From Patescibacteria group bacterium (lineage in GTDB: Bacteria; Patescibacteriota; Patescibacteriia; JACRDY01): 48,303 nt of DNA. The stretch is from NCBI GenBank assembly GCA_041653535.1, contig JBAZFH010000004.1, positions 73,271-121,573 of the forward strand. Reading direction: 5' to 3'. Positions 383 to 45,229 of this stretch are shown in pieces (the stretch's first letter is position 1; each line of letters begins with the position of its first letter). Under the pieces are notes generated by a model. That model ran no database searches and was not told where the DNA came from. It was given only the letters and a program-made list of their open reading frames with translations. The position numbers were made by a program, and so were the translations under genes.

Positions 383-1144
383 GTGGGTAAAAAAAACAAC
401 AGTTTCTTCAGATTTCTTGCTCATCTCTTTATCATGGCAACAATTCTATCGCTGGCAGTAGGAGCCACGGCTTGTAAAGATAAAAAAATAAAAAAAGACG
501 ACCAGACTGCTCAGCAAAACAGTCTGCGCGACGAATTGAGGAGAAACAAACAAGAAATTGAATCAACTATGACAAAAATCAACCAAGAAATCAATAAGGC
601 CGAAGGTGCTCTCCAATCCTTAAAATCAGCGGCCAAAGAATGCCAGATGGAACTGAATAAAATAAAAAAAGAAGAAGGAATCGAAACTTACCAGCAGGCT
701 GTAAATAGTCAAAAGGCAAACAACAGACTGCAATGCATCGCCGCCAACCAGGGATATATTGATTACATAAACCAATACATCTTTGAGTCCAAAAGTTCCA
801 ACGAAAATTTACTGTCGGTGAAAAGGCAGCTCGACGCTGGCATTACCGCCAGTGAAGTTCTCAACAATGAAGGTAACCTGCAGAACCTCCGCGAAACCTT
901 AAAAGAATTCAGTCAGAGGTACGGGAAAAATCAAGGCAATGAAATAATGCCGAAATTCACCAACCTTCCAGCTGAGGACCTGGAAAAGTTAAAGCAACAA
1001 TCGTGGGAAAAGATTCAGGAACAAACAAAAAATCAGCAACAAATAAATCGCGATGCTGTCACGGGACCGCCACATCTCGTACCCCACGGCTCGGGTAGTT
1101 CCGGACCGCCGATACCGCAGCGGACAGCCGACAGTCTCGAATGA
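383..1144 (+). CDS. putative lipoprotein with coiled-coil region and Pro/Gly-rich C-terminus (function unknown)
   Basis: GTG start 7-8 nt after AGGAG. Signal peptide with lipobox-like LAVGATAC. Long heptad-like K/E/Q-rich segment. TGA stop. Confidence 0.7.
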   Translation: MGKKNNSFFRFLAHLFIMATILSLAVGATACKDKKIKKDDQTAQQNSLRDELRRNKQEIESTMTKINQEINKAEGALQSLKSAAKECQMELNKIKKEEGIETYQQAVNSQKANNRLQCIAANQGYIDYINQYIFESKSSNENLLSVKRQLDAGITASEVLNNEGNLQNLRETLKEFSQRYGKNQGNEIMPKFTNLPAEDLEKLKQQSWEKIQEQTKNQQQINRDAVTGPPHLVPHGSGSSGPPIPQRTADSLE

Positions 1145-1220: not shown

Positions 1221-2174
1221 ATGAATATTCAATGGGTTAAAACAAATACTGGTTTTGCCATCTCGTTAATCATCGCCTTGATTATCACGGTAATCGGCGC
1301 AAAATTCGGCAGAATCTGGCTATCATCTTTTGGCTTGCTGCTGGCGGCCAGCGGTGTACTGCTCAAAATTATGTACAGCGCCAGTGCCAAACCGGCAAAA
1401 ATCGCCCTGGCGATAATTTCTTTAGCAGCCGCATTAGTCGTTTTTGTCTTTATCGCCGGACTGGACTCGCTGCTTGTCCTAATCACGGTCTATCCATGGA
1501 TCGCCGACAAAATCGTAGGACAGACCAATATGAACGTCTACCTTGCCAATGCTATTGCTGTTGTCATGGCCGTAGTAGTGCTCTACGGAATGCATATCAC
1601 CCGCAAAAATCGCCCGGCAGGAATAGCGATTTTAGCCGTCGTCATGATCAGTTATTACGTCATGCTTTTTATCATGGCGGTCGAGCCAAACTTTGACCAA
1701 AACGGCAAAGCGGTAAAATGTTACGCCCAAATACCCGGGGGCGATATCGAATACGTCAACTGCAAGTACAAAGTCCATCCGGTTTACGCCACACTGGTGA
1801 AACCGGTGACGACAGCGGTCGCCCTACCGGAACGGGCGACAAAAATCATCCCTTATGCCGAGATCCAACTGTTTGATCCGCGAACCGGCGAGGCAATGTA
1901 CTGGTTCAGCCAAGACCAAAACGGACGTTTTGAACTTTACAACCGTCCGGGATTTCACTCTCAAACCGGACAAATGCTGCAACCGGTCAGTAAAGCGGCG
2001 GCGGATCTGATCGTTCGTAATTTGCAGGAAAAAAATATCAACGCCTTTGCCTTGACGGAGAAAGAAAAAAAGTTATTCAACGACAAAGTAAATGGCGACG
2101 TTATCGCAACCAACGGCGTCAATGGTCTGATCAATTTTATCGACCAACATCAGGAACGCCTGAAACAGGAGTGA
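1221..2174 (+). CDS. polytopic membrane protein with soluble C-terminal domain of about 150 aa (function unknown)
   Basis: ATG preceded by GAGGA. About 5 hydrophobic helices in the first 165 aa, then a hydrophilic domain. No recognisable motif. Confidence 0.75.
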   Translation: MNIQWVKTNTGFAISLIIALIITVIGAKFGRIWLSSFGLLLAASGVLLKIMYSASAKPAKIALAIISLAAALVVFVFIAGLDSLLVLITVYPWIADKIVGQTNMNVYLANAIAVVMAVVVLYGMHITRKNRPAGIAILAVVMISYYVMLFIMAVEPNFDQNGKAVKCYAQIPGGDIEYVNCKYKVHPVYATLVKPVTTAVALPERATKIIPYAEIQLFDPRTGEAMYWFSQDQNGRFELYNRPGFHSQTGQMLQPVSKAAADLIVRNLQEKNINAFALTEKEKKLFNDKVNGDVIATNGVNGLINFIDQHQERLKQE

Positions 2175-2380
2175 ATCAAAAAAAAATGAAAGCTCTGATC
2201 ATCAGTTGTAGTCATTGCCGCCGCGAATTTGCCGCCGATACCAAAACAGCGGTGGCAACAAAAGAAATTATCAAAAAAATAGTTGCGGGTTGCGTTATCA
2301 CCTGCACCTGCCCACACTGTAACAAAAAACAGCGGGCGACAATTTGGTTCGCCAATACCAAAAAGTTGCTGCGCTACTAG
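2171..2380 (+). CDS. small Cys-rich zinc-ribbon-like protein
   Basis: GTGA start/stop overlap with the upstream gene (an alternative ATG lies at 2186). CSHC ... CTCPHC cysteine pairs. Followed by a terminator. Confidence 0.55.
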   Translation: MNQKKMKALIISCSHCRREFAADTKTAVATKEIIKKIVAGCVITCTCPHCNKKQRATIWFANTKKLLRY

Positions 2381-2433: not shown

Positions 2434-3054
2434 TTACACCGTTTTATAATTTCTTATTACCGCCCTGACCACGCCCTGAATCAACGGATCTTTGACGTAA
2501 ATCGGGTCCATGTCTTTGTTGGCCGGTTGCAGACGAATCCTGCCGACTTCCCGATAAAATCTTTTTAGTGTGGCATAGGCGTTATCAAGCAGCGCTACTA
2601 CTGTGTCACCGTTGTTAGGGCTAGGATTGCGCTCTACCACTACGTAGTCGCCGTCCAAGATCCCGTCTTCGATCATACTGCTGCCTTTTACCTGCAAGAC
2701 ATAAGAATTTTCTTTATGAAGTACTAAATTTGCCGGAATGGCTATCGGCTCGGGATTAGCTATCGCTTCTATCGGTTCACCGGCAGCAATCAGACCCATC
2801 AAAGGTAAATTAACTATCTCGGTAATATTTATATCATCGCTTTCCACCGAAATCAGCTCTATCGACCTGGCCTCATTAGTCGAACGACGCAGCAAGCCCT
2901 TTTTCTCCAACGCCTCAATATGCTGGGCAACCGTTGCTACTGAAGAAAGCTTAAAATGACTGGCAATTTCACGAAAGCTAGGAGAGTAACTATGGGCAAT
3001 AATAAAATCACGGATGTATTCGATTATTTCTTGTTGTTTTTTGGTGAGACCCAT
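2434..3054 (-). CDS. lexA: LexA repressor (S24 peptidase)
   Basis: N-terminal LexA winged helix (SFREIASHFKLSSVATVAQHIEALEKKGLL). Ala-Gly cleavage site (LIAAGEPI). Catalytic Ser (KGSSM) and Lys (TLKRF). Confidence 0.9.
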   Translation of the reverse strand: MGLTKKQQEIIEYIRDFIIAHSYSPSFREIASHFKLSSVATVAQHIEALEKKGLLRRSTNEARSIELISVESDDINITEIVNLPLMGLIAAGEPIEAIANPEPIAIPANLVLHKENSYVLQVKGSSMIEDGILDGDYVVVERNPSPNNGDTVVALLDNAYATLKRFYREVGRIRLQPANKDMDPIYVKDPLIQGVVRAVIRNYKTV

Positions 3055-3062
3055 ATTGGTAG

Positions 3063-3090
3063 ATGGTAGTTAGTAGTTGGGGGTTAGGGA
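3063..3090 (-). repeat. CTA-rich, G-poor leader segment abutting the lexA ATG (member of the dispersed CTAAC repeat family)
   Basis: Minus-strand reading: CCCTAACCCCCAACTACTAACTACCATCTACCAAT-ATG. No Shine-Dalgarno sequence. Confidence 0.4.
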
Positions 3091-3196
3091 CAGAATCAAC
3101 TTTTGATTTTTAGCGGCTAGCTTTTTTTAAATCGTCTTCGCTCGTGCCAAGACAAATTAGTGGGCCTAATTATTTATTATTTGCTAACCGCCAATC

Positions 3197-3209
3197 ATCA
3201 CCCGGTGAT
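3197..3209. promoter_or_regulatory. 13-bp perfect palindrome ATCACC-C-GGTGAT just downstream of the lexA -10 box
   Basis: Read directly. Starts 11 nt downstream of the lexA -10 box, i.e. at about the predicted TSS. The same ATCACCnGGTGAT core recurs at 39148..39164. Confidence 0.3.
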
Positions 3210-3219
3210 TCATACTTCT

Positions 3220-3247
3220 ATTATACCGAACAAAAACCGAACGTCAA
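3220..3247 (-). promoter_or_regulatory. lexA promoter
   Basis: Minus strand: TTGACG (3247..3242), 16-nt spacer, TATAAT (3225..3220). Confidence 0.6.
3228..3242 (-). promoter_or_regulatory. candidate SOS box, direct repeat GTTC-N7-GTTC inside the lexA promoter spacer
   Basis: Minus strand: TTGAC-GTTC-GGTTTTT-GTTC-GG-TATAAT. Matches the direct-repeat LexA box architecture known from Alphaproteobacteria. Confidence 0.45.
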
Positions 3248-3300
3248 GAATACTTATCCACAACAAAAAATCACCCTTTATTTACTATTTCTTTTTACTA

Positions 3301-3329
3301 TTGACAAAAATATTCTAAAATGCTATTAT
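3301..3329 (+). promoter_or_regulatory. near-consensus promoter for the 3397..4251 gene
   Basis: TTGACA (3301..3306), 17-nt spacer, TGc-TATTAT (3321..3329, extended -10). Confidence 0.6.
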
Positions 3330-3396
3330 ATAAAGATTTGAAAATTGACAACCAATATTTTTTTTCAGAACTTTCAGAACTAAGGAGGTAAAGAGA

Positions 3397-4251
3397 ATGG
3401 TCGCGATCACAACAATCACCGCCACCCCGGGCACGATCACCGTGCCGGTCGCCAAAAAAACCAACGACATGATCGTTGTCGTCTTCCAAAAGGACGGCGA
3501 CAACATCATGGGCAAAATCCAGAAAGACAAAAAAAGACGAAACAAAATCGTCTTCGTGAACGGCTATCACCGTCACGTCGAATCGATCAAAGCTGGCAAA
3601 AAAAACGTTTTGTGGACATCACCCCTGCCTGACGACGGCGAACGGTGGCTCGTGGACGTTGTCCACGACAACAAACCCAAAGACCCGGAGCGCGGCGCCC
3701 TATTCGTGCGGCTGCAAAAAAACCTGACCGCCGAAGAGAAGGCGGTCCAGCGCGCCGAGGAAATGCGCCTGGCGCCGATCGTGGCACTCGGGTTCAAAGT
3801 CGAGGAAGCGCAGGTGATCGAAAAAATCGCGGCGAAAATCCGCGAACGGAAACTGTTTTCGCAATTCCGCGACTTCGCCAGCGCAAAATCGCTCAACGTG
3901 GGCGTCAACCGTCTCAGCGCCGACGCGCACCGAATGTTCAAGGCGTTGGTTCTGGAGGCAAACAAAATCAGCGAGCGTCCGGAAATGTGGGGCATTACCC
4001 ACAAAATGTTCGAAGCGGCGGTCATGTGGCTCGGTCTCGAGTCGACCGACGCCGCTTTCATCCCCCAGGGTAAGCGCTGGTACGTTTGCATCTGCGGCAC
4101 GGCAACCCGTGCCCGCAAAGGCGCGAACGAAGTCCAGTGCGACGCCTGCGGTCGACGGGCGGTGCTCGACGAAGCCAAAGATGTCGAGCAAAAAAAGGTG
4201 GCTTTGGTCGAAATGGCCGCCGCCATGCAGCAAAAGTGGAACGGCAAATAG
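3397..4251 (+). CDS. GC-rich orphan protein with C-terminal CxC...CxxC zinc ribbon (function unknown, probably horizontally acquired)
   Basis: ATG 8 nt after AAGGAGG, with its own promoter and terminator. Third codon positions are mostly G/C, unlike all neighbours. Stop-poor on all six frames. C-terminal motif VCICGT...CDACG. Confidence 0.8.
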   Translation: MVAITTITATPGTITVPVAKKTNDMIVVVFQKDGDNIMGKIQKDKKRRNKIVFVNGYHRHVESIKAGKKNVLWTSPLPDDGERWLVDVVHDNKPKDPERGALFVRLQKNLTAEEKAVQRAEEMRLAPIVALGFKVEEAQVIEKIAAKIRERKLFSQFRDFASAKSLNVGVNRLSADAHRMFKALVLEANKISERPEMWGITHKMFEAAVMWLGLESTDAAFIPQGKRWYVCICGTATRARKGANEVQCDACGRRAVLDEAKDVEQKKVALVEMAAAMQQKWNGK

Positions 4252-4276
4252 CGTCGCTGTCGACAAATTATTCATC

Positions 4277-4309
4277 AAGCGGATTCGAAAGGATCCGCTT
4301 TTCTTTTTG
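4277..4309 (+). terminator. rho-independent terminator of the 3397..4251 gene
   Basis: AAGCGGAT / ATCCGCTT stem followed by TTCTTTTT. Confidence 0.6.
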
Positions 4310-4312
4310 CAT

Positions 4313-4341
4313 AAAAAAACCGGCGAGATAACTCCCGCCGG
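4313..4341 (-). terminator. rho-independent terminator of the beta-CASP gene
   Basis: CCGGCG / CGCCGG stem. A T7 run follows on the minus strand (A7 at 4313..4319 on plus). Confidence 0.55.
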
Positions 4342-4350
4342 ATTTGATTG

Positions 4351-5892
4351 TTATAAAATTTTGGTTATATCCTCCTTTTCTTCGGGAACGATAATTCGTC
4401 TGCCAATATCACGAAAACGACTTGATTGATCCGCGATAAGCAAACGACGCAAGGCTTGCGCGTTTTCCGCCTCGCCATGAAGCAGCATAACCCGGTTTTT
4501 TTCATCAATATGCTGCCGCAAAAAATCCACCATACCGGGTCCGTCTTCGTGAGCCGAGATGCCAAAAAGCGTCAATACATCGGCTCTGATAATTTTTGAC
4601 TGACCGTAAATCCTTAACCGCGTTCCCTTTTGAGACATGGCGATTTTACGACCGCGAGATTCGCGAACGGAAAATCCGGTCAAAATCACCAAATTACGAG
4701 GATCGTCAATGCCATTCGCCAAATGATGAACAATTCGACCGGCATCACACATGCCGGACGCCGCCATGATAATAACCCGCTGCTTAGCGTTCAACTGCTG
4801 CGACTCGGTTTTATCCAGGGTCTGGGTAATGCCGCCGTTGGTCAAAAAATCCGGATACTGCAACTCCCGCAAATAACCGGCAAGTTGAGAGTAAACGTTG
4901 CTGACTTTAATTGCCAACGGACTGTCCAGATAAATAGGCATCTGCGGTATTACCCCTTCTTCACGCAGCGTATAGAGCATGTAAAGCAGCTCCTGAGTAC
5001 GCTCCAGAGAAAAAGCGGCGATCAGCACCTTGCCGTCACGATCGTGTGTTTGACGAATTTTTTCGATCATTTCTTGTTTTGAGACTTCAAACGACAGGTG
5101 GCGGTCCGCTCCATAAGTCGACTCGGTAACCACCAGATCAGGAAATCTTTCGTCCGACGGCAAGCCCAAGAAATCTTGTCTCGGATAAAGAATCATGTTC
5201 TTTTTCCGTCCGACATCGCCAGTAAACAAGATTGAACGCTTACGACTTCCTTCGCGCCAACGGATAAGAAAAGCCACTGACCCAAGAATATGACCAGTAG
5301 GCAGAAGCTTCAACTCCATGTCGTCGGCCATGCCTTTTAACGGTTTCCACTCATTTGGCGGTCGATCAACCAGTCTCTCTGTCAGCCATTCCACGTCCTG
5401 TTCAGAATAAAGAGGATAAATGGCCTCCGACATGCCTCCGCCCTTGGAATTTTGACGATCGTGCCGCGGCTTGTCTTTTTTGCCTTTACCTCTTAGGTCT
5501 TGGTCTCCGGTCTGTCGGCGAGCCTGATCTAGTTTGCGCCGATGTTTTTCCAGCCACAACGCTTCTTGTTTGGCAATACGGGCTGAATCGATCAACATCA
5601 AGGGCAACAATTCCCGAGTCGGAGAAGAAACAATCACTTGACCATGAAATCCCCTCTTTCGCAGTAGCGGCAAAAGACCGCTGTGGTCGATGTGTGAATG
5701 GGTTACCAACACGTACCTCAAATTCACCTGCAAACGAGCCAGTTGATGAACCAAAGAACTGTTGTGGGTATATGCTTTAGCAACATTACCCTGTTGCGAC
5801 CCCATATCAACCAGTATGCCGCTGCCAGCATGAACCAACAGCGTACAAGAACCAGTTACCTGACCAACCGCGCCTAGCGGGATAACATCCAC
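4351..5892 (-). CDS. metallo-beta-lactamase fold / beta-CASP-type ribonuclease-like protein
   Basis: HSHIDHSG (HxHxDH) motif with the overall MBL plus beta-CASP layout. GTG start 6 nt after AAGGGGG. Contains a basic K/R-rich insert. Confidence 0.75.
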   Translation of the reverse strand: MDVIPLGAVGQVTGSCTLLVHAGSGILVDMGSQQGNVAKAYTHNSSLVHQLARLQVNLRYVLVTHSHIDHSGLLPLLRKRGFHGQVIVSSPTRELLPLMLIDSARIAKQEALWLEKHRRKLDQARRQTGDQDLRGKGKKDKPRHDRQNSKGGGMSEAIYPLYSEQDVEWLTERLVDRPPNEWKPLKGMADDMELKLLPTGHILGSVAFLIRWREGSRKRSILFTGDVGRKKNMILYPRQDFLGLPSDERFPDLVVTESTYGADRHLSFEVSKQEMIEKIRQTHDRDGKVLIAAFSLERTQELLYMLYTLREEGVIPQMPIYLDSPLAIKVSNVYSQLAGYLRELQYPDFLTNGGITQTLDKTESQQLNAKQRVIIMAASGMCDAGRIVHHLANGIDDPRNLVILTGFSVRESRGRKIAMSQKGTRLRIYGQSKIIRADVLTLFGISAHEDGPGMVDFLRQHIDEKNRVMLLHGEAENAQALRRLLIADQSSRFRDIGRRIIVPEEKEDITKIL

Positions 5893-6035
5893 GACTACCC
5901 CCTTCTACGCATTTATTTTCTGCGTCAGTTATTAGCACTTTATTTGTAAAAGGTCATTAAAGTACTTTAGATAATTTTTCATAAAAAAGCAACCGCAAAA
6001 AACGGCAGTTTTCCCCGTCAAAAAAATTACTGTTT

Positions 6036-7463: not shown

Positions 7464-7883
7464 TTAGGAAACTTCTTCGAAATCCCATCCACCGTCTTTC
7501 TGATAGATCCAGAGCATTTGGACGTCCATACCATGCCACTTGGCGCTAATCTTTTCTTTCAACTTGCGCATGTCATCAACCAGATACTTTTTGGCATCTT
7601 CGGTCGAAGCAAACGCCGCCGTCCCGCCATAAGCGCCACAGTCTTCGTGCTGAGTAAGAATCACTCGATTGCTACCGTGTAATTCGTGTGACAACTCGAT
7701 CTGCCGAAAAAGAAAACCGGCTTCAACACTGTCGGGATCGGCGACAAAAGTTTTACAAGCGCCGGCGACAGACACTAAATCGATATCACCGACATAACTA
7801 TGAATTACAAGCCATTTTTCGATTGCTTCGTGCAGCCGAAAATCCATGCATCGAACTAAAATATTCCTACAGTTGTGTGACAT
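7464..7883 (-). CDS. small beta-carbonic-anhydrase-like protein (putative)
   Basis: Has CMDFR (CxDxR) and HEDCG (HxxC), spaced as in beta-class carbonic anhydrase zinc ligands. Only 139 aa, so the function is uncertain. Confidence 0.45.
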   Translation of the reverse strand: MSHNCRNILVRCMDFRLHEAIEKWLVIHSYVGDIDLVSVAGACKTFVADPDSVEAGFLFRQIELSHELHGSNRVILTQHEDCGAYGGTAAFASTEDAKKYLVDDMRKLKEKISAKWHGMDVQMLWIYQKDGGWDFEEVS

Positions 7884-44156: not shown

Positions 44157-44585
44157 TTAGACTCCCAATTCTCCTAATTTCTCGGCGATATTGCCACTTT
44201 CTTTTTCCACTCCAGAACGATATTTAGCCCAAAGCTGTTCATCCCAAAGCTCAACACGATTATAAAGACCGGCAACAATTACCTTTTTATCCAATCCGGC
44301 AAACTTACGCAAATATTCTGGAAGAACTATTCTGCCCTGACCGTCTACCAAAACATCCATTGCGCCGGCAAGCATCAGGCGTGAAAAAGCTCGGCTATTG
44401 GCCTGTGATATTGGCATGGCGGAAAGCTTATCAGCAAGTTTATCCCATTCTTTAGCTGGGTAAATAACCAAACAACCGTCCAGCCCCTTAGTAACCACTG
44501 CTTTAGCCAAGTCCTTGCGAAACTTAACAGGAATAGCCAGCCTGCCTTTTTCATCAATATTGTGAGCATACTCACCAATAAACAT
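44157..44585 (-). CDS. mraZ: transcriptional regulator MraZ
   Basis: MFIGEYAHNIDEKGRLAIPVKFR and a duplicated SpoVT/AbrB-like half. Confidence 0.9.
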   Translation of the reverse strand: MFIGEYAHNIDEKGRLAIPVKFRKDLAKAVVTKGLDGCLVIYPAKEWDKLADKLSAMPISQANSRAFSRLMLAGAMDVLVDGQGRIVLPEYLRKFAGLDKKVIVAGLYNRVELWDEQLWAKYRSGVEKESGNIAEKLGELGV

Positions 44586-44619: not shown

Positions 44620-44667
44620 CCCCACCTTTATCCACAATTCACCACTTATTTCCATTATACACCACTT
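44620..44667 (-). promoter_or_regulatory. array of five 10-bp phased GTGG-type boxes (candidate MraZ operator)
   Basis: Plus-strand CCAC/CCAT at 44622, 44632, 44642, 44652 and 44662. Minus strand: AAGTGGTG, TAATGGAA, AAGTGGTG, TTGTGGAT, AGGTGGGG. Confidence 0.55.
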
Positions 44668-44682: not shown

Positions 44683-44757
44683 CCACTAAGATTTATCCAC
44701 AAGTTATAACTATTAAAAATTAACGACCGTGACCACTAAAAAATAGGTTAATTAAAC

Positions 44758-44842: not shown

Positions 44843-45229
44843 TTATTGTCCCCTGGAAAGCATTTTGTAAATATTATTATTTTTTATCATTTCAGGAATT
44901 TCCATATCGGTATTTCTTCCGTATAGCATAAAAGAAAGAATTTCTTGGATAGTAGGAGCTGTCGCTTGCTGCTCAAAATTTGGTATCACGTTTAAATCTG
45001 TAATGCGGTATACTGCTCCTTTATATTCTGCTAAATAGTATTCTCCTTCTGGTACGTTGTCGGAATGGCGTAATCCTTGCCCAATAATCCATTTTGAGCT
45101 TTCCAACAAAATACCCCTGTCAATAGCTTCTCGCACCAAAGTATCGACGTTCTTATCACTAACTTTCAAATACACGTGACCCAGACTTACCATTTCCATT
45201 GCCTGCTGTAACGGTAATTCTCTTTTCAT
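44843..45229 (-). CDS. hypothetical 128-aa protein
   Basis: ORF with an ATG start. No recognisable motif. Confidence 0.65.
   Translation of the reverse strand: MKRELPLQQAMEMVSLGHVYLKVSDKNVDTLVREAIDRGILLESSKWIIGQGLRHSDNVPEGEYYLAEYKGAVYRITDLNVIPNFEQQATAPTIQEILSFMLYGRNTDMEIPEMIKNNNIYKMLSRGQ

Follow-up and report, generated by a model that had tools for sequence, protein, structure and literature searches.

RecO is a recombination mediator that combines an oligonucleotide/oligosaccharide-binding (OB) fold, a helical domain and a Cys4 zinc finger, as seen in the structure of Deinococcus RecO. A broadly comparable architecture is predicted for the product of a GC-rich gene (3397..4251, + strand; 284 aa) that is divergent from lexA in a 48,303-nt stretch of DNA from a Patescibacteria group bacterium (GenBank assembly GCA_041653535.1, contig JBAZFH010000004.1, positions 73,271 to 121,573; the whole stretch is hereafter called the window). 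By analogy, the family of this protein may be likened to RecO in the types and order of the modules, in the similar length and in the presence of DNA-repair genes among its neighbors; however, the zinc ribbon of the family lies near the C-terminus, whereas that of RecO is located within the helical domain, and a core repair gene would not show the patchy distribution and the fast evolution of the family. OB/S1 domains, such as vaccinia K3L, aIF1A/IF1, RPA and the S1 domains of NusA, Rrp4/Rrp40 and RNase R, are the best structural matches of the five-stranded beta-barrel of ~90 residues that is predicted at the N-terminus of the family proteins. In the family, however, the predicted barrel is only the first module, followed by a helical region and a zinc ribbon, and the conserved sequences KIVFIxGY, LP.DGEEW.C and PEDP..GAL, which are partly acidic, differ from the ribonucleoprotein (RNP) motifs of S1 and CSD domains.

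With respect to genomic location, the relevant described systems are LexA regulons and the cargo genes of genomic islands. In PMC8565304, GTTC-N7-GTTC is given as the LexA operator type of Alphaproteobacteria, and PMC7739468, with reference to the Patescibacteria study of Sanchez-Osuna et al. (2017), states that direct-repeat LexA motifs arose independently several times. The GC-rich gene adjoins a lexA gene with GTTC-N7-GTTC in its promoter; unlike the members of such regulons, it lacks an operator, and the GAAC repeat in its leader has a spacing of N5 rather than N7. Like ‘moron’-like or island cargo genes, it is a self-contained transcription unit of atypical composition that is absent in close relatives, and the family occupies variable or tRNA-adjacent spots. 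Unlike such cargo, it is accompanied by no prophage, integrase or repeat boundaries, no phage, viral or plasmid homologs were found, and the family gene is stably syntenic in two lineages. On balance, we lean, with confidence somewhat above even, towards reading the gene as a genuine, self-transcribed, foreign accessory cassette that encodes a member of an OB-like barrel/zinc-ribbon family, inserted in the variable interval that separates a methyltransferase gene from the lexA promoter, with a role linked to nucleic acids.

The GC-rich gene and its protein family

An earlier note on this DNA had singled out the gene for its composition, its own expression signals, a repeat in its leader and a zinc ribbon in its product. 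All the sequence features listed there are present, each to within one base. The promoter (3301..3329, + strand) consists of TTGACA, a 17-nt spacer and the extended -10 element TGcTATTAT, matches the consensus in 11 of 12 positions and would place the transcript start near 3337. The Shine-Dalgarno sequence AAGGAGG (3383..3389, +) is located 7 nt 5' of the ATG, and the gene has its own intrinsic terminator (4277..4309, +), a 10-pair stem (4277..4300) followed by a T-run. Directly before the Shine-Dalgarno sequence, the 5' untranslated region (UTR) contains the tandem 9-mer TCAGAACTT/TCAGAACTA (GAAC-N5-GAAC; 3365..3382, +), which is not predicted to be a LexA site. The predicted fold of the leader RNA has no significant structure (z = -0.42), and Rfam scans of the locus yielded nothing above noise.

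The gene had been described as an orphan, a view that could not be sustained: when 1.84 billion cluster representatives were searched exhaustively with phmmer, 28 further clusters of homologs emerged with E ≤ 1e-3 (best E = 1.3e-16), and three clusters, the query aside, with E ≤ 1e-10. The family to which the GC-rich gene belongs is rare, evolves fast and had not been described before. The homologs are remote, with 22-34% identity for the full-length members (26-34% in blastp comparisons to the window protein) and ~30-34% identity for the nearest one. An end-to-end alignment of 14 proteins (248-296 aa) contains 18 invariant columns, four of them cysteines. In addition, there are stand-alone proteins of the N-terminal domain (89-161 aa) as well as proteins in which it is joined to long C-terminal extensions of unrelated sequence (389-717 aa; P0015, P0019, P0021, P0024 and P0028). 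A word-indexed search retrieved only the query itself when started from the single protein, only P0018 and the query when started from the full alignment, and nothing when started from the N-domain alignment; evidently, the index of that search misses the family. Scans of the window protein and the 14 members against Pfam, PHROGs, NCBIfam and PADLOC produced generic zinc-ribbon noise only. In PADLOC, the window protein had no match and one member matched PDC-M14A (E = 2.9e-4), within the zinc ribbon alone. Similarly, neither the protein nor the family profile retrieved anything from the PDB sequences except spurious matches to zinc fingers.

The family members share a common plan, namely, an N-terminal domain of ~85 aa (KIVFIxGY...W.G.LP.DGEEWLCEV..DT.PEDP..GAL.V.L..NLT), a helical middle part of variable sequence, an ‘AWL’ helix and, towards the C-terminus, a zinc ribbon of the form CxxC...CxxC. 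The hallmark of the family is the N-terminal domain (aa 24-112; 3466..3732, +), a beta domain that is conserved in 27 proteins with the signature KIVF.xGY...W..LP.DGE.W...V.D..P.DP..GAL.V.L..NLT and is predicted to form an OB/S1-like barrel; only in the window protein, it contains a 9-residue insertion (~aa 60-68, after GYH). The predicted zinc ribbon (aa 219-256; 4051..4164, +), which the earlier note had recognized, is supported by the family alignment, in which its four cysteines (C231, C233, C248 and C251) are invariant across the 14 sequences. In the window protein, the first knuckle is CxC, resulting in the arrangement C-I-C ... C-D-A-C near the C-terminus. Four short strands are predicted at the ribbon (aa 221-256), and some family members have weak matches to Zn_ribbon models of Pfam.

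With the family alignment as input, AlphaFold2 yielded a model with a mean predicted local distance difference test (pLDDT) score of 79.7, as opposed to 43.6 for the single sequence; most of aa 21-110 reaches 85-95, and aa 51-80 reach 75-84. When this model was compared to the PDB with Foldseek, ~35 of the 50 best matches spanned only ~85-115 columns, and most of these were OB/S1-type domains; the OB/S1 matches in the PDB and BFVD included K3L, aIF1A, the NusA S1 domain, Rrp4/Rrp40, RNase R, RPA and HIN. For the N-domain and K3L, the TM score normalized by the target is 0.57-0.59. There was no sequence-profile match of the N-domain to the S1, CSD or OB models of Pfam. From the model, we infer that an OB/S1-like barrel is followed by a helical domain and by a zinc ribbon of the C4 type, a fold assignment that is supported but not proven.

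Codon bias, insertion spot and genomic contexts

The atypical composition of the gene was borne out by comparison with the 49 other non-overlapping open reading frames (ORFs) of at least 100 aa in the window. Its GC content is 0.571 (0.404 for the whole window), with 0.59, 0.38 and 0.74 at the first, second and third codon positions (GC1, GC2 and GC3), respectively. The GC3 of the other ORFs averages 0.387 (standard deviation 0.062, range 0.28-0.56, maximum 0.563), which corresponds to z = 5.7 for the GC-rich gene. The bias is a replacement of T by C at third positions rather than a uniform shift in GC content: compared to the other genes, T accounts for 7% of the third positions instead of 35%, and C for 45% instead of 18%, whereas Lys, Glu and Gln retain host-like A endings, with G/(A+G) of 0.33 versus 0.29 in the neighbors. 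At NNY codons, C/(C+T) reaches 0.94, compared to 0.42 in the neighbors and 0.30 in the genes for EF-Tu, EF-G and ATP synthase. A preference for C-ending codons through translational selection was considered and rejected: the highly expressed genes of the host, with their even lower C-fraction (0.30), show no preference for such codons, and therefore, selection of this kind within the host fails as an explanation. Because Lys keeps AAA while other codons became C-ending, the gene contains six in-frame A6-A8 runs (at 3454, 3529, 3598, 3716, 3821 and 4190), for example at Lys-Lys, a density of 7.0 per kb versus 3.5 per kb in host genes. These runs are potential slippage sites.

A LexA-based scan of metagenomes yielded 80 related lexA loci besides the window, and family members were found at none of these. 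The closest relatives that span the spot, L083 (LexA 85% identical) and L084 (81%), lack both the GC-rich gene and the convergent gene for a beta-CASP metallo-beta-lactamase nuclease (4351..5892, - strand). In L084, the gene order is atpD-atpC-carbonic anhydrase-methyltransferase-lexA, whereas L083, a contig of 3.3 kb, displays methyltransferase-lexA only. The distance from the methyltransferase stop codon to the conserved lexA promoter block is 57 bp in L083, ~980 bp with two unrelated ORFs in L084, and ~2.77 kb in the window, where this strain-specific segment (3271..6035) holds the GC-rich cassette (~3271-4310) and the beta-CASP gene. DNA homology to the relatives ends at ~3270, ~30 bp ahead of the -35 element of the GC-rich gene. 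Given that the spot differs among the window, L083 and L084, it is variable, and the GC-rich gene is an accessory insertion in it. The contig is 100% identical in two further public samples, and hence the GC-rich gene is no artifact of a chimeric assembly. The gene is almost certainly foreign, as indicated from two sides, namely, by the deviation in GC3 and codon usage, and by its absence at this locus from the closest relatives, which have different genes or none between the methyltransferase gene and lexA.

The convergent beta-CASP gene encodes a protein of 513 aa with Lactamase_B, Beta-Casp and RMMBL domains. Its best matches in species-representative genomes are exclusively from Alphaproteobacteria, at 29-34% identity, and, judging from its GC3 of 0.50, it was probably acquired in an event separate from the acquisition of the GC-rich gene.

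The genomic contexts of the family could be read in six independent lineages. Apart from the window, where the gene is located between lexA and the beta-CASP gene, the family is found in L163 and L175, which are syntenic, 3' of tRNA-Glu and 5' of the genes for LexA and a Y-family polymerase; the respective members, P0018 (27% identical to the window protein) and P0010, are encoded 0.7-3.1 kb upstream of this pair. The order in L175 is family gene, ResIII/DEAD helicase, OB+HD protein and lexA. The OB+HD protein, with an OB domain of the tRNA_anti-codon family, resembles YhaM-type nucleases. In L172, the family gene is divergent from an ECF sigma factor gene and is followed by the gene for a helicase related to that of L175. 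This Hef-like ResIII/DEAD/Helicase_C protein (587 aa) is 55% identical over 300 aa between the two loci (L175 9050..11832 region and L172 5167..6054), and the two lineages differ greatly in GC content. In L173, the family gene is divergent from recG, identified by its RecG wedge domain, and tRNA-Arg is located 85 bp downstream. In the syntenic loci L170 and L177, it follows tRNA-Met and tRNA-Lys and lies between genes for a cation ATPase and a nucleotidyl-transferase. Finally, in L180, it adjoins an island of DpnI/DpnII, methyltransferase, AAA_15, HNH and GmrSD genes, with a tRNA gene ~200 bp away. An all-against-all comparison of the neighbors showed that only the helicase recurs (L175 and L172), and tRNA genes are located 0.1-1.5 kb from the family gene in 4 of the 6 lineages. 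Each member with enough flanking sequence on the contig has its own consensus-like promoter and terminator: TTGACA-17-TAnnnT promoters precede the genes in L163, L170, L172, L173, L174, L175 and L180, and a hairpin with a T-run ends those in L163, L170, L172, L173, L175 and L180.

In nearly every locus, the GC3 of the family gene exceeds that of its neighbors, for instance, 0.59 versus ~0.31 in L163, 0.59 versus ~0.36 in L173 and 0.44 versus ~0.29 in L170. In L180, the family gene, with GC3 of 0.46, lies between the defense island (0.13-0.27) on one side and genes with values of 0.36-0.58 on the other side. The family also diverges faster than its surroundings: P0004 and P0006 are 47% identical, with 80-85% identity of the syntenic flanking genes, and P0018 and P0010 are 32% identical, with 62-77% identity of the flanks.

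Two observations on tRNA-adjacent loci deserve separate mention. In L163 (7295..10795), and also in L164 and L165, a GC-rich island of ~3.5 kb directly follows tRNA-Glu and comprises, against a typical GC3 of ~0.31 in this genome, a 237-aa ORF (GC3 0.48), a 442-aa ORF (GC3 0.65) without a match in Pfam or PADLOC, and P0018 (GC3 0.59); the syntenic L175 has different genes at this place. In L170 (~7756..7870), the 3' end of tRNA-Lys (CAGCCGGATCACAA) is repeated ~100 bp downstream, just before the promoter of the family gene, which looks like an attachment (att) site scar of a past integration.

The lexA operator and rival explanations

The promoter of lexA (3220..3247, - strand), outside the cassette, has the form TTGACG-16-TATAAT, with the spacer filled by GTTCGG-N5-GTTCGG (3226..3242). 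Among the 81 loci, 41 contain a GTTC-N7-GTTC direct repeat upstream of lexA, usually GTTCGGTTTTTGTTCGG and typically inside the TTGACG-16-TATAAT spacer. Phylogenetic footprinting thus points to GTTCGG-N5-GTTCGG as a LexA operator of the alphaproteobacterial direct-repeat type in what is probably a lineage of the candidate phyla radiation (CPR). This probable placement of the host, which has a small, low-GC genome, relies on the genome sizes of relatives (~0.85 Mb) and on the types of sample (groundwater and landfill, small-filter). For a weight matrix, 47 operators preceding lexA in related loci were assembled (consensus GTTCGGTTTTTGTTCGG), with the 11-bp unit spacing as a criterion for their collection. 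In the window, this matrix detects one strong site, at 3222..3246, with a score of 37.0, followed by a next best score of 11.7. In many lexA loci, the operator is closely followed by a second copy in inverted orientation (GAAC-N7-GAAC).

Once the operator is defined, the explanations other than a self-contained foreign cassette can be weighed against each other. That there is no gene at all, with a reading frame kept open by chance in a GC-rich insert that has few stop codons, or with the real gene on the opposite strand (for example, the 224-aa frame at 3573..4247, -), is scarcely credible. The region is indeed as poor in stop codons as the earlier note had it, with eight overlapping ORFs of at least 60 aa on both strands, but the position-specific GC content suits the plus-strand frame, the promoter, Shine-Dalgarno sequence and terminator all serve that frame, and the 28 homologous clusters align in it over the full length, which effectively refutes this reading. 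The model of the earlier note, in which the gene is an SOS-linked, damage-inducible effector, appears improbable as well; LexA would have to repress the gene through the GAAC repeat or through a shared intergenic operator. The location makes it attractive: the gene and lexA diverge from start codons that are 342 bp apart, and with the homologs upstream of lexA and the Y-family polymerase in a second lineage, 2 of the 6 lineages have the gene within 4 kb of lexA, which, by our estimate, has a probability of ~1e-3 under random placement in a genome of ~0.9 Mb. However, both lexA-upstream regions are demonstrably variable insertion spots, which could explain the adjacency to lexA without a functional link, and, as indicated above, the family is missing from all the other lexA loci of the scan. 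The leader repeat, although it holds the GAAC core of the operator half-site, scores -11.5, and the best score anywhere in 3271..3400 is -6.8, which leaves no LexA operator at the GC-rich gene; the units of the repeat are 9 bp apart rather than the 11 bp of all 47 operator instances, a spacing that was, however, preset for their collection. The tandem 9-mer itself is real but not statistically unusual: ~20 places in the window contain tandem 9-mers with at most one mismatch, and GAAC-N5-GAAC occurs 3 times versus 1.25 expected, a number reached in 12 of 100 shuffles. Furthermore, the repeat is not conserved in the 5' UTRs of the other family members, and the lexA operator is centered ~100 bp upstream of the inferred transcript start, without overlap with the promoter of the GC-rich gene. 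The other family genes examined (L163, L170, L172, L173, L175 and L180) have no site with a score of 10 or more upstream; the only LexA boxes in L163 and L175 are those immediately ahead of lexA, and the genes for P0018 and P0010, each served by its own promoter and terminator, lack such a box. Direct regulation of the GC-rich gene by LexA is therefore not supported by the sequences compared here.

The remaining two explanations concern the function of the family. It is possible, albeit doubtful, that the gene is a module of genome conflict, either a stand-alone anti-phage sensor or effector, or a counter-defense or immunity factor left by a mobile element, in which case the divergence would reflect an arms race and the adjacency to lexA would be incidental. 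Evolution faster than that of the flanking genes, the patchy distribution (29 clusters among the 1.84 billion representatives), the hot spots adjoining tRNA genes, the position of P0020 at the border of an island with restriction-modification, GmrSD, HNH and AAA_15 genes, the helicase and HD-domain protein after the family gene in L175, and the occurrence of the N-domain alone or fused to unrelated C-termini, which is typical of modular conflict proteins, all speak for such a function. Conversely, PADLOC gave no significant match, the PDC-M14A hit being confined to the zinc ribbon of one member, no enzymatic or toxic domain is recognizable, no relatives were found in the phage and viral collections, and only one of the six contexts includes a clear defense island. 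Even less can be said for a dedicated mediator of DNA repair or recombination, a RecO-like or single-strand-binding accessory that would work with the neighboring helicases (Hef-like, RecG) and nucleases (beta-CASP, OB+HD), which we regard as very improbable. The order of the OB, helical and zinc modules within ~250-290 aa may be reminiscent of RecO, and repair-type neighbors are present in 5 of the 6 lineages. However, none of the 14 members matches RecO_N or RecO_C of Pfam at E ≤ 0.1, neither RecO nor SSB nor gp32 is among the top 50 Foldseek matches in the PDB, and RecO is absent from the profile search of the PDB sequences as well; the neighbors have separate promoters and terminators, and a core repair factor would be less patchy, less fast-evolving and less foreign in composition.

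Several features of the lexA region and of the window were noted along the way. A perfect DnaA-box consensus, TTATCCACA, is present at 3254..3262 (+), upstream of the -35 element of lexA. The same 9-mer is found ~6-12 nt (in one locus, up to ~24 nt) upstream of the lexA -35 element in L083, L084, L085, L175 and 17 other loci. It is conserved, in either orientation, in the alignment of the closest relatives and occurs in at least 17 of the 46 operator-bearing lexA promoters, including those of loci with LexA only ~57-63% identical. This conservation suggests an input of DnaA, or of another factor that recognizes this 9-mer, into lexA transcription. The only other perfect copies of TTATCCACA in the window, at 44628..44636 and 44693..44701 (+), 65 bp apart, are intergenic, between the ORFs 44157..44585 and 44843..45229, and could be part of an origin or of a DnaA-regulated promoter. 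The leader of lexA is unusually long, ~158 nt (3055..3212, -) from the inferred start at ~3213 to the ATG at 3054; in L083, the equivalent interval (758..994) is occupied by a lysine-rich ORF of 78 aa, which stops 5 nt short of lexA. Just downstream of the 3' end of lexA, a 69-aa ORF (2171..2380, +) with two CxxC pairs and a weak match to the CpXC zinc ribbon of Pfam (E = 1.9e-5) overlaps the stop codon of a gene for a 317-aa membrane protein by 4 nt. L084 also lacks the three genes that follow lexA (69, 317 and 253 aa), and in L083 another gene occupies that position.

A possible role of the family and its implications

We return to the reading of the gene as a self-transcribed foreign cassette with a role linked to nucleic acids. 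Under this scenario, the gene would be driven by its own strong sigma-70-type promoter, independently of LexA, and the protein, not an enzyme itself, would bind either single-stranded nucleic acid or a partner that processes nucleic acids, and would function in the maintenance of the genome or in genome conflict. Binding, or service as an adaptor, is proposed because the recurring neighbors, namely, lexA with the Y-family polymerase gene, the helicase, RecG and the restriction/defense island, all deal with nucleic acids; the OB+HD protein of L175 and the beta-CASP nuclease of the window belong to the same theme. Ligand binding and the physiological role are inferences, as is the fold, whereas the existence of the gene, its membership in the family, its codon bias, the lack of a LexA operator and the absence of the gene from the closest relatives are shown.

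A number of observations weigh against this reading. The contexts come from only six lineages. No integrase or transposase marks the insertion, and a search for flanking direct or inverted repeats produced only short chance matches. No homolog was found in IMG/VR, nor, by tblastn, among the INPHARED phages or the PLSDB plasmids, and no vehicle or donor could be recognized. The structural similarity, although with Foldseek probabilities up to 1.0, is limited to ~90 residues, with E ~1e-2 and a root-mean-square deviation of 5-7 A. The isoelectric points of the family range from 5.1 to 9.6 and the conserved loops are acidic (DGEEW, PEDP); therefore, charge provides no argument for binding of nucleic acids. 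The family gene is syntenic across diverged genomes in L170/L177 and in L163/L175, and hence was inherited there rather than newly acquired, yet it is still shifted in GC3. Recent transfer alone does not explain this shift.

A bolder generalization, which we offer only tentatively, is that this is a new family restricted to the CPR, a mobile, rapidly diversifying single-gene nucleic-acid module involved in conflict with phages and mobile elements or in damage tolerance, which repeatedly settles next to lexA, repair helicases and tRNA genes, and in which the C-for-T bias, persistent even under vertical inheritance, stems from a gene-specific selective or mutational process and is not left over from a donor. 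If the T-to-C bias at third positions is indeed intrinsic to the family, this would be an unusual case of codon bias traveling with a gene.

A more general lesson, albeit a negative one, is that adjacency to lexA together with a GAAC repeat is no evidence of SOS control once the operator of the lineage, GTTCGG-N5-GTTCGG, is defined. CPR bacteria have tiny genomes in which most accessory genes are unannotated. Here, an apparent orphan has become a definable family, with a structural model, a diagnostic N-terminal motif and recurring neighbors, and experimenters can now approach this family as a concrete candidate for a function in genome maintenance or conflict, in bacteria that have not yet been grown alone.

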